A DNA stretch of 4,109 bases from a virus (Duplodnaviria; Heunggongvirae; Uroviricota; Caudoviricetes), in IMG/VR virus record IMGVR_UViG_2778261176_000018, positions 1 through 4,109 of that record. One strand, given 5' to 3'. Below are positions 3,032 through 4,109 of the stretch, in pieces. A program made the translations under genes and the position numbers. A model generated the notes under the pieces. That model was not told where the DNA came from. It ran no database searches and saw only the letters and a list, made by a program, of their open reading frames with translations. The number at the start of each line of letters is the position of its first letter. Position 1 is the stretch's first letter.

Positions 3032-3043
3032 ACTAAAACCATG

Positions 3044-3076
3044 AATAACCCGTGTATATACGGGTTATTTTTCTTT
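3044..3076. terminator. rho-independent terminator, probably bidirectional, between convergent transcription units
   Basis: Perfect 9-bp stem ATAACCCGT (3045-3053) / ACGGGTTAT (3060-3068) with a 6-nt loop GTATAT, extendable by an A-T pair (3044/3069), followed on the plus strand by TTTTTCTTT (3068-3076). On the minus strand the same hairpin is followed by a weaker U-rich tract (TTATTCATGGTTTTAGTTT). The hairpin overlaps the stop codon of the minus-strand CDS at 3065-3067. Confidence 0.65.
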
Positions 3077-3613
3077 ATCGCCATCTTTTCTTGATTTGAA
3101 CAATCCACTAACAACGAAGCCAACCAAACCAACAATGCTAATTGTACTTGTACCTAGTAATGCAACGATTGCTTCAACTGGAGGCTTTCCTTCATGAGCA
3201 ATAAGAAACGATACAAACATTACGGCTACAAATAAGCACCACCACGACATAAAACAAACCGTGAATGATGCCATTTTTGTCCGAAGTTCATTGTCTATTT
3301 CTTTACCAGTTGCGTCAGCTATCTTATCGCGTACTTGTGATTTGAGCATATCAAGCTGAGCTTGAAGACTGTTCATTCTGTGCTGCTGCATAAACTCATG
3401 CAATGCACCTGTATTAGAACCAAACTCTTCTTCCTCCAGAATAGCTTTATTTTCTGAAGAAGAATCATCATCGCTCTCATGATTAGACGGCTCAAATGCA
3501 GATTTAAAAACCTGTTCTTGACTGTCAGTATAGTTTAAGGATGCTTCAGAGCGACCATTTTCAACACCTGCAGCCGCTCCGATAAGTTTATAGATATCTG
3601 AATTGCGAGACAT
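3065..3613 (-). CDS. membrane protein with two C-terminal transmembrane helices; candidate toxin/abortive-infection effector
   Basis: ATG (complement of 3611-3613) with AGGGA 4 nt upstream on the minus strand; stop TAA (complement of 3065-3067). 182 aa with a soluble N-terminal part including an acidic/Ser-rich stretch (ESDDDSSSENKAILEEEEF) and a coiled-coil-like segment, then two hydrophobic segments of about 23 and 25 aa (FTVCFMSWWCLFVAVMFVSFLIA and AIVALLGTSTISIVGLVGFVVSGLF) separated by a short loop, ending in a basic tail KSRKDGDKEK. Lies 22 nt downstream of the Panacea-like gene on the same strand. Confidence 0.6.
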   Translation of the reverse strand: MSRNSDIYKLIGAAAGVENGRSEASLNYTDSQEQVFKSAFEPSNHESDDDSSSENKAILEEEEFGSNTGALHEFMQQHRMNSLQAQLDMLKSQVRDKIADATGKEIDNELRTKMASFTVCFMSWWCLFVAVMFVSFLIAHEGKPPVEAIVALLGTSTISIVGLVGFVVSGLFKSRKDGDKEK

Positions 3614-3635
3614 GTCATCCCTGAATATTACTTTT

Positions 3636-4109
3636 TCAGAGGCCCTGACATTGCTGTCGGTTATTCAATAAATCATGATAATAAGTCTTGATCGCATCAT
3701 CTGGGATGATTGACGAGCCAATACCATTATAAGTTTGTGACCAAGGCGTACCTGGCATATGAGTTAGAGTTGATAACTCAATTCCATTTTTCGAGCCGTA
3801 AAATTTATAAACAGCCCCTATAATGCTCTCTGCTTGCGGATCCATAGTAACAATGCCACCAAAAGGAGCTACTGCTACATTCGTAACAGGCTTATTCCCA
3901 TAATCTTTGAAAGCATCGTACATTCCGGGAATAACCGGACCGTACTTCCACGCAGAGACACATTCGTTGAGCAAAGGCTTACCTGTTAATGCTAAATAGT
4001 AACCATGGGCAATATAAGTAAGCTTCTGCAGTTGCATGTGGGTCAGAGGATTATGATGTTGGTTTCCCAACGTTATGAATTTATTGGCTATTTGTACCGG
4101 GCTGTACAT
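3636..4109 (-). CDS. Panacea (DUF4065)-domain protein, GepA/SocA-like; candidate antitoxin
   Basis: ATG at the window edge (complement of 4107-4109), stop TGA (complement of 3636-3638), 157 aa. The N-terminal region MYSPVQIANKFI...MQLQKLTYIAHGYYLALTGKPLLNECVSAWKYGPVIPGMYDAFKDYG matches the conserved core of DUF4065/Panacea proteins as I recall it (LQKLLYYAQ...WKYGPV.P.VY). Promoter and RBS are outside the window. Confidence 0.65.
   Translation of the reverse strand: MYSPVQIANKFITLGNQHHNPLTHMQLQKLTYIAHGYYLALTGKPLLNECVSAWKYGPVIPGMYDAFKDYGNKPVTNVAVAPFGGIVTMDPQAESIIGAVYKFYGSKNGIELSTLTHMPGTPWSQTYNGIGSSIIPDDAIKTYYHDLLNNRQQCQGL

Follow-up and report, generated by a model that had tools for sequence, protein, structure and literature searches.

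The AT-rich end of a lambdoid dusA prophage sequence very probably holds most of an exchangeable PanAT toxin-antitoxin cassette

The window analyzed here, a stretch of 4,109 nt, ends on its right side with an AT-richer segment in which two minus-strand genes converge on a plus-strand operon, and this arrangement raises the question of whether the segment is an accessory unit acquired by the phage or an ordinary part of its backbone. A sequence-only reading of the same DNA had proposed a horizontally acquired moron, delimited by a shift in base composition and by a terminator. Our analysis leads with high confidence to a related answer: positions 3010-4109 very probably represent most of a self-contained, exchangeable PanAT cassette located in an Escherichia coli lambdoid prophage of the Stx2k type integrated in dusA. 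Since this unit is self-contained and exchangeable, the idea of an acquired accessory unit was right. To its left, the plus strand carries closely packed genes that often overlap, as is usual in a lambdoid early-left operon:

1-351, plus strand, hypothetical gene
348-833, plus strand, SAM-dependent methyltransferase
830-1429, plus strand, Ead/Ea22 gene
between the Ead/Ea22 and DUF551 genes, plus strand, 49-aa ORF
1584-2150, plus strand, DUF551 gene
2150-2722, plus strand, Rv2179c-like 3'-5' exonuclease
2759-3031, plus strand, PrtN-family gene, probably excisionase (xis), last gene of the early operon

The product of this last gene matched Pfam PF11112 (3.9e-23) and phrog_1300, annotated "excisionase" (7.7e-40), and its counterpart is labeled excisionase in the mEp460 record; judging from these matches, the gene is probably xis. 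Some observations were also made on the rest of the operon. Overlaps of 4 nt, in which GTGA or ATGA combines the start and stop codons of successive genes, were found at 348-351, 830-833, and 2147-2150, and suggest translational coupling along the early operon. The operon is also mosaic, as the matches to prophages that are otherwise 96-98% identical break at 1161-1433 and 1584-1712, which places the breaks within the Ead/Ea22 gene and where the DUF551 gene begins; relatives frequently have these genes split or with a partial annotation. Finally, the product of 2150-2722 is matched along its entire length by the Rv2179c-like 3'-5' exoribonuclease domain (E=1.3e-75), and the label "exodeoxyribonuclease VIII" borne by this gene in several phage records is probably a carried-over misannotation. 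A search of the window and of locus L003, a carrier of the same segment whose sequence runs past the right end of the window, against Rfam gave no match.

The base composition of the window does change toward its right end. The GC content is 47.5% over positions 1-3031 and 40.0% over positions 3032-4109 (2x2 chi-square p=2.4e-5), 200-nt windows range from 44 to 53.5% on the left and from 37 to 42.5% on the right, and the likelihood of the observed change point was reached by 0/500 block shuffles. The AT-richer right end that had been proposed is therefore real, with a difference of about 7.5 points instead of the 10-12 that had been implied. Its position, in turn, had to be corrected: the switch had been placed at the hairpin around 3040, whereas the maximum-likelihood change point is 2741 (support interval 2640-3021), at the start of xis, a gene of the conserved backbone with 41.8% GC. 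The sequence-only reading had also called for a comparison of codon usage, which was run with a synonymous-codon G test with permutation. GC3 was 46.3% in the six upstream plus-strand genes and 33.6% in the two minus-strand genes (p=8e-5), panT alone reaching 29%, but the full synonymous-codon comparison was marginal (permutation p=0.055). In mEp460, the whole stretch from xis through the cassette, attP, and int to dinI has 42-44% GC against 47% in the early operon, and low GC is not specific to the module because xis, attP, int, and dinI are equally GC-poor there. The unit delimited below, named cassette A, has 39.1% GC, the adjoining 860 nt on the left having 47.3%. The GC drop begins about 270 nt ahead of the true recombination boundary and is common to the whole integration region, which makes composition a poor marker of the module; used alone, it would have put the module boundary about 270 nt off. 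It also adds little to the case for a foreign origin because the codon test is marginal and the adjoining integration genes are GC-poor. The elements that make up the segment are the following:

3010-4109, in-window part of cassette A
3043-3079, plus strand, hairpin and U-run (stem-loop 3043-3070, U-run 3071-3079)
3065-3613, minus strand, panT, predicted 182-aa toxin, no Pfam family
3614-3635, minus strand, spacer of 22 nt from the panA stop to the panT start, with an AGGGA Shine-Dalgarno-like motif
3636-4109, minus strand, panA, predicted 157-aa antitoxin with only a Panacea (DUF4065) domain
L003 7079-7322, out-of-window part of cassette A, 244 nt with the predicted promoter and a leader of about 150 nt

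The start codon of panA is the last triplet of the window. PanA matched PF13274 (6.2e-18, 66.2 bits against a gathering cut-off of 25.7), has no N-terminal DNA-binding domain, and is identical at 153/157 positions to WP_000287252.1; three genomes have this accession annotated at the corresponding position, and it was also seen inside dusA prophages (L001, L004, and L005). PanT matched phrog_13343 (1.9e-111). Its residues 1-113 are acidic (22 D/E versus 12 K/R), hydropathy indicates two C-terminal transmembrane helices at about 118-140 and 146-170, and hydrophobic 19-mers cover residues 114-142 and 145-172. It is 92% identical to WP_000019186.1, the partner of the PanA accession WP_000287252.1, and several of the 14 substitutions fall in the first transmembrane helix. 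These genes are labeled PanT/PanA in GenBank PV340566 (PhiR47_1). A PDB sequence search with PanA gave no match, and PADLOC-DB 2.0 returned none for PanT and a chance-level one only for PanA (E=0.021).

This accession connects the window to a system that was characterized experimentally. WP_000287252.1 is listed as the PanA of E. coli STEC O31, a validated antitoxin paired with the toxin WP_000019185.1 of class "Membrane" (Kurata et al., 2022, PNAS, Table 1; PMC8832971), and in the dataset of that study the pair is recorded with the order A|T, a spacer of 22 nt, and a toxin of cluster T3. Cells that express the toxin cease to grow and are rescued by the cognate PanA; transcription, translation, and replication stop together, the membrane is depolarized, and SYTOX Green enters, indicating pore formation, while neutralization by PanA needs neither ClpXP nor Lon (PMC8832971). 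The window pair has the same gene order and 22-nt spacer, a 97% identical PanA, and a PanT of the same length and architecture, and loci with the STEC O31 PanA accession occupy the same genomic slot as the window cassette. It is an allelic variant of the STEC O31 pair that differs at 4 positions of PanA and about 14 of PanT; the link of the window PanT to the validated WP_000019185.1 is indirect, as it is made via partners of the same PanA accession. The two pairs differ in that the STEC O31 PanAT was flagged "NotPhage" (PMC8832971, supplementary file 2), whereas the window pair belongs to a prophage and also occurs in phages that are sequenced and named. Three features expected of a PanAT system, a Panacea domain, the antitoxin-toxin order with a short spacer, and near-identity to a validated pair, were found, as was the combination of an acidic N-terminal region and two C-terminal helices that characterizes the membrane PanT of cluster T3. 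PanA has its SocA/Panacea domain in common with the type VI system SocAB of Caulobacter, in which SocA serves the SocB toxin as a ClpXP adaptor, and SocA was the only NCBIfam match, below its cut-off (NF047745, 99.7 bits versus 190); a SocAB-type mechanism was rejected on this score and because the toxin is an unrelated membrane protein.

Between the convergent units, a GC-cored hairpin with a 12-bp stem and a 4-nt loop spans positions 3043-3070. Its stem begins 12 nt after the xis stop codon (3029-3031), and its 3' arm includes the panT stop codon (3065-3067). On the plus strand, it folds with -14.4 kcal/mol (z=-4.2), with UUUUUCUUU directly after it; on the minus strand, where the U-tail is poor, the energy is between -12.7 and -13.3 kcal/mol (z=-2.3). 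From these features, the hairpin is the predicted intrinsic terminator of the xis/early transcript and likely also a weaker end of the panAT transcript. Of the hairpin noted earlier as the end of both units, the 12-bp stem and the plus-strand U-run were thus confirmed, the minus-strand end being predicted to be weaker. Each of the alternative cassettes described below has a different hairpin of its own at the same place, directly after the xis stop. A hairpin at 4051-4078, considered as a second terminator, was rejected as a chance match, since it lies in panA coding sequence, on the non-coding (plus) strand, with only 3 G-C pairs.

The borders of the cassette were determined by comparing the window and L003 with dusA prophages that lack the segment, i.e., four loci with other cassettes. 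Similarity of 96-99% to the other prophages ends at 3009 and returns at L003 7323, the breakpoints being identical against the four loci. The left breakpoint is at 3009/3010 (3020 versus cassette C), within the 3'-terminal part of xis, and the right one, mapped with the query L003:7079-7500, falls 244 nt past the window end, so that cassette A measures 1,344 bp (L003 5979-7322). These coordinates replace the borders assumed earlier, namely 3032/3040 and 4109. The last 7-10 codons or so of xis (3010-3031) vary with the cassette, ending in …VRTDKQKYN here and in …VRTGKQKGKEHH with cassettes B and D, which places the recombination boundary inside xis. Complete E. coli genomes have this region at the right end of a dusA-integrated prophage: panA is followed by about 300 nt, then by a 105-nt displaced 5' dusA fragment, then by the host DUF2713 gene, zur, dinF, and lexA. 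A conserved phage arm (attP arm) extends over 62 nt past the right breakpoint and, from L003 7385 on, the sequence matches the intact dusA of prophage-free strains such as K-12, indicating that the attR junction is located there, 62 nt from the cassette. On the circular phage map, xis is followed by the cassette, then by attP, int, dinI, and the tail fibre.

The part of cassette A that lies outside the window contains a match to a sigma-70 promoter, TTGACA-16-TATAAT, with 12/12 consensus positions (L003 7263-7236). This predicted promoter is 157 nt upstream of panA, which is preceded by an AGGAGG ribosome-binding site. As far as sequence matches go, cassette A is therefore self-contained, with its own promoter and its own terminator. 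The hexamer ACAGTG/CACTGT occurs in 4 copies in the 244-nt panAT promoter/leader against 0.13 expected (0/5,000 shuffles), two of the copies forming an inverted repeat just upstream of the -35 element; these repeats could possibly be an operator, a candidate to be read with the fact that the motif was picked after seeing the data.

Then, the content of the interval between the conserved flanks was surveyed in 5,426 complete E. coli genomes, where four fillers were found:

Cassette A, 1,344 bp, PanA of 157 aa and membrane PanT of 182 aa, 79/5,426 genomes (L003 5979-7322)
Cassette B, 1,470 bp, PanA of 190 aa, soluble 128-aa protein and 57-aa ORF, 205/5,426 genomes (L009 2031-3500)
Cassette C, 1,172 bp, PanA of 193 aa and 153-aa protein, 46/5,426 genomes (L010 2329-3500)
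Cassette D, 1,068 bp, 177-aa and 57-aa proteins with no family match, 357/5,426 genomes (L011 2433-3500; L008 4861-5928)

Cassette A is present in 79 of about 690 related dusA prophages with the same flanks, the same right flank being found in at least 75/79 of its copies. Searching the 5,426 genomes with a synthetic junction query made of 300 nt of each flank retrieved 0 genomes with flanks 800 nt apart or less, i.e., no empty slot. All four cassettes are GC-poor (38.7-42.9%) and supply their own xis tail. Three of the four (A, B, and C) carry a PanA pair, and the toxins of these pairs are unrelated. The left 190 nt are common to B and D and the right 40 nt to B and C, which indicates that the cassettes themselves are mosaic. 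Proteins of the alternative cassettes gave no usable match in PADLOC. Cassette D, the commonest filler, also occurs in O157:H7 strains; its 177-aa protein belongs to phrog_4350 and its 57-aa protein to phrog_2741 (L011 2881-3414 and 2511-2684; mEp460, L008 4939-5842), neither of them had a Pfam or PADLOC match, and the C-terminus of the 177-aa protein appeared GNAT-like by eye only.

This survey bears directly on the possibility that the segment is simply vertically inherited backbone, its low GC resulting from an AT-rich integration region and from the amino acids of a membrane protein. The composition data are compatible with such an origin, as the GC drop starts in the conserved xis and spans xis-attP-int-dinI in mEp460, the synonymous-codon difference is marginal, and the slot is always filled. 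It is nevertheless very improbable, since it is already contradicted by the presence/absence data: cassette A is restricted to the 79 genomes, while about 600 others hold unrelated DNA between the same breakpoints with flanks 96-99% identical, the PanA proteins of the other cassettes share with that of cassette A (A versus B) only family-level similarity, and the GC3 of panT is as low as 29%. Comparison with related prophages had been named beforehand as a way to refute a horizontal origin, and this origin survives it.

Whether the cassette is a moron in the strict sense is another matter. Like morons (Juhala/Hendrix; lambda lom and bor, HK97 gene 15), which are independent promoter-gene-terminator units of lower GC with a non-essential accessory function, the cassette has a promoter and a terminator of its own, both recognized by sequence match. 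Its GC content is 39-40%, against 47.5% in the early operon and 42-44% in the adjoining xis, attP, int, and dinI, with a synonymous-codon p of 0.055. Morons, however, are extra DNA between adjacent genes, whereas the slot described here undergoes allelic replacement: no relative has adjacent flanks (0/5,426 genomes) and four alternative fillers exist. Of the horizontally acquired moron proposed earlier, the horizontal cassette is thus retained, and the insertion is not. Among temperate phages, the defence or accessory hotspots of P2 and P4 and the cargo found by the integration cassette of mycobacteriophages offer interchangeable small systems at a fixed position with conserved flanks. The window slot is similar to these by its conserved flanks and its location near att/int, but its sampled diversity is small, with four fillers in which one antitoxin family is dominant.

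Among sequenced phages, the 1,078-nt segment is 99.9% identical in phiSTEC1575-Stx2k (OQ243220) and 96% identical in PhiR47_1 (PV340566) and 1720a-02 (KF030445). These three phages have the same neighbors (exonuclease, xis, cassette, attP, and int), int lying just across attP from the cassette in phiSTEC1575-Stx2k, and show no substantive difference; on the left side, their plus-strand early genes form another mosaic. Homologous pairs with a 156-aa PanA, 62-66% identical, are found at prophage edges in three unrelated contexts: the Klebsiella pair is next to smpB/ssrA, that of Enterobacter borders host genes, and that of Salmonella follows dinI. In Klebsiella (L012 4824-6555) and Salmonella (L016 5043-6576), the PanA-PanT pair is directly downstream of dinI at the prophage edge; in the E. 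coli phages, dinI is just across attP and int from the cassette.

Taken in the reading order of the minus strand, the preferred PanAT cassette would comprise a sigma-70 promoter, a leader of about 150 nt, panA, the 22-nt spacer, panT, and a hairpin terminator in common with the converging xis transcript. PanA and PanT very probably form a type II toxin-antitoxin pair. By analogy with the pair whose PanA is 97% identical, PanT would enter the inner membrane via its two C-terminal helices and cause depolarization and permeabilization, and PanA, a bare Panacea domain, would neutralize it, most likely by direct binding; the E. coli pair is absent from those listed for the published pull-down experiments (PMC8832971). 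The promoter would be active in the lysogen, and exchange between related phages would occur by homologous recombination in the conserved flanks, i.e., the 3' end of xis and the 62-nt attP arm.

The biological role of such a cassette may be abortive-infection defence or prophage retention. If it is defence cargo, PanA would restrain PanT in the lysogen until a superinfecting phage lowers or sequesters PanA, whereupon the membrane potential would collapse and the infection abort. This role is a possibility that we hold tentatively: it agrees with a self-contained unit with a strong predicted promoter, with a slot that hosts alternative toxin-antitoxin cassettes, and with a prophage-edge location typical of lysogen-expressed cargo and found again for the homologues in three other genera, and a growing number of toxin-antitoxin systems related to PanAT prove to act against phages (PMC10440598). 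Against it, PADLOC has no match for PanA/PanT, and our literature search found no phage-challenge or anti-phage defence test for any E. coli PanAT. Alternatively, the cassette could be an addiction module, prophage loss by excision leaving the cell without a presumably labile PanA and exposed to the killing action of leftover PanT. Classical type II pairs on mobile elements do act as addiction modules, and the slot is located between xis and attP, in the excision/integration region, is empty in 0/5,426 genomes, and is filled in three cases out of four by PanA-type toxin-antitoxin pairs. Addiction appears nonetheless rather unlikely, as neutralization is independent of ClpXP or Lon (PMC8832971) and the commonest filler, cassette D, is not recognizably a toxin-antitoxin pair.

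A broader proposal is that the xis-attP interval of dusA lambdoid phages is an obligatorily filled cassette site, which swaps mostly PanA-type pairs and is coupled by its position to the decision between lysogeny and excision. Its placement inside the excision/integration region fits such a site, yet the proposal as a whole is speculative and we regard it as improbable. In this view, the coupling could come from the position of the cassettes, which face the early-left transcript and lie between xis and int: upon induction, for example, read-through from the early promoter, antisense to panAT, would set the pore-forming PanT free, or else cells that lose the excised prophage would die. A literature search found no description of an xis-attP hotspot or of its coupling to lysogeny/excision.

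The PanAT pair itself is already known, as a close allele of an experimentally characterized system that is labeled in a public phage record, and the finding, correct in substance, is ordinary because a near-identical pair has already been tested experimentally. In the literature searched, two points appeared undescribed, the prophage context of the validated pair and the four-allele xis-attP slot, and both are incremental. The analysis thus has little weight as a discovery and three modest points of value. A validated system flagged "NotPhage" is now placed in inducible Stx-converting and other lambdoid phages. The slot is a clean natural one in which the breakpoints are fixed and four fillers alternate; three of these are built on PanA and have unrelated toxins, so that the slot shows in situ the swapping of toxin partners that has been proposed for Panacea antitoxins, and it is a handy system in which defence and prophage retention can be compared for such pairs. 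Finally, the case illustrates that a GC shift, taken by itself, can misplace a module boundary, here by about 270 nt.

The host side of attR was found to be variable as well. Strain 20Ec-P-124 is devoid of most of the displaced dusA fragment and of the DUF2713 gene (L002 12516-12648 compared with L003 7401-9057), while the other strains have both between attR and zur.
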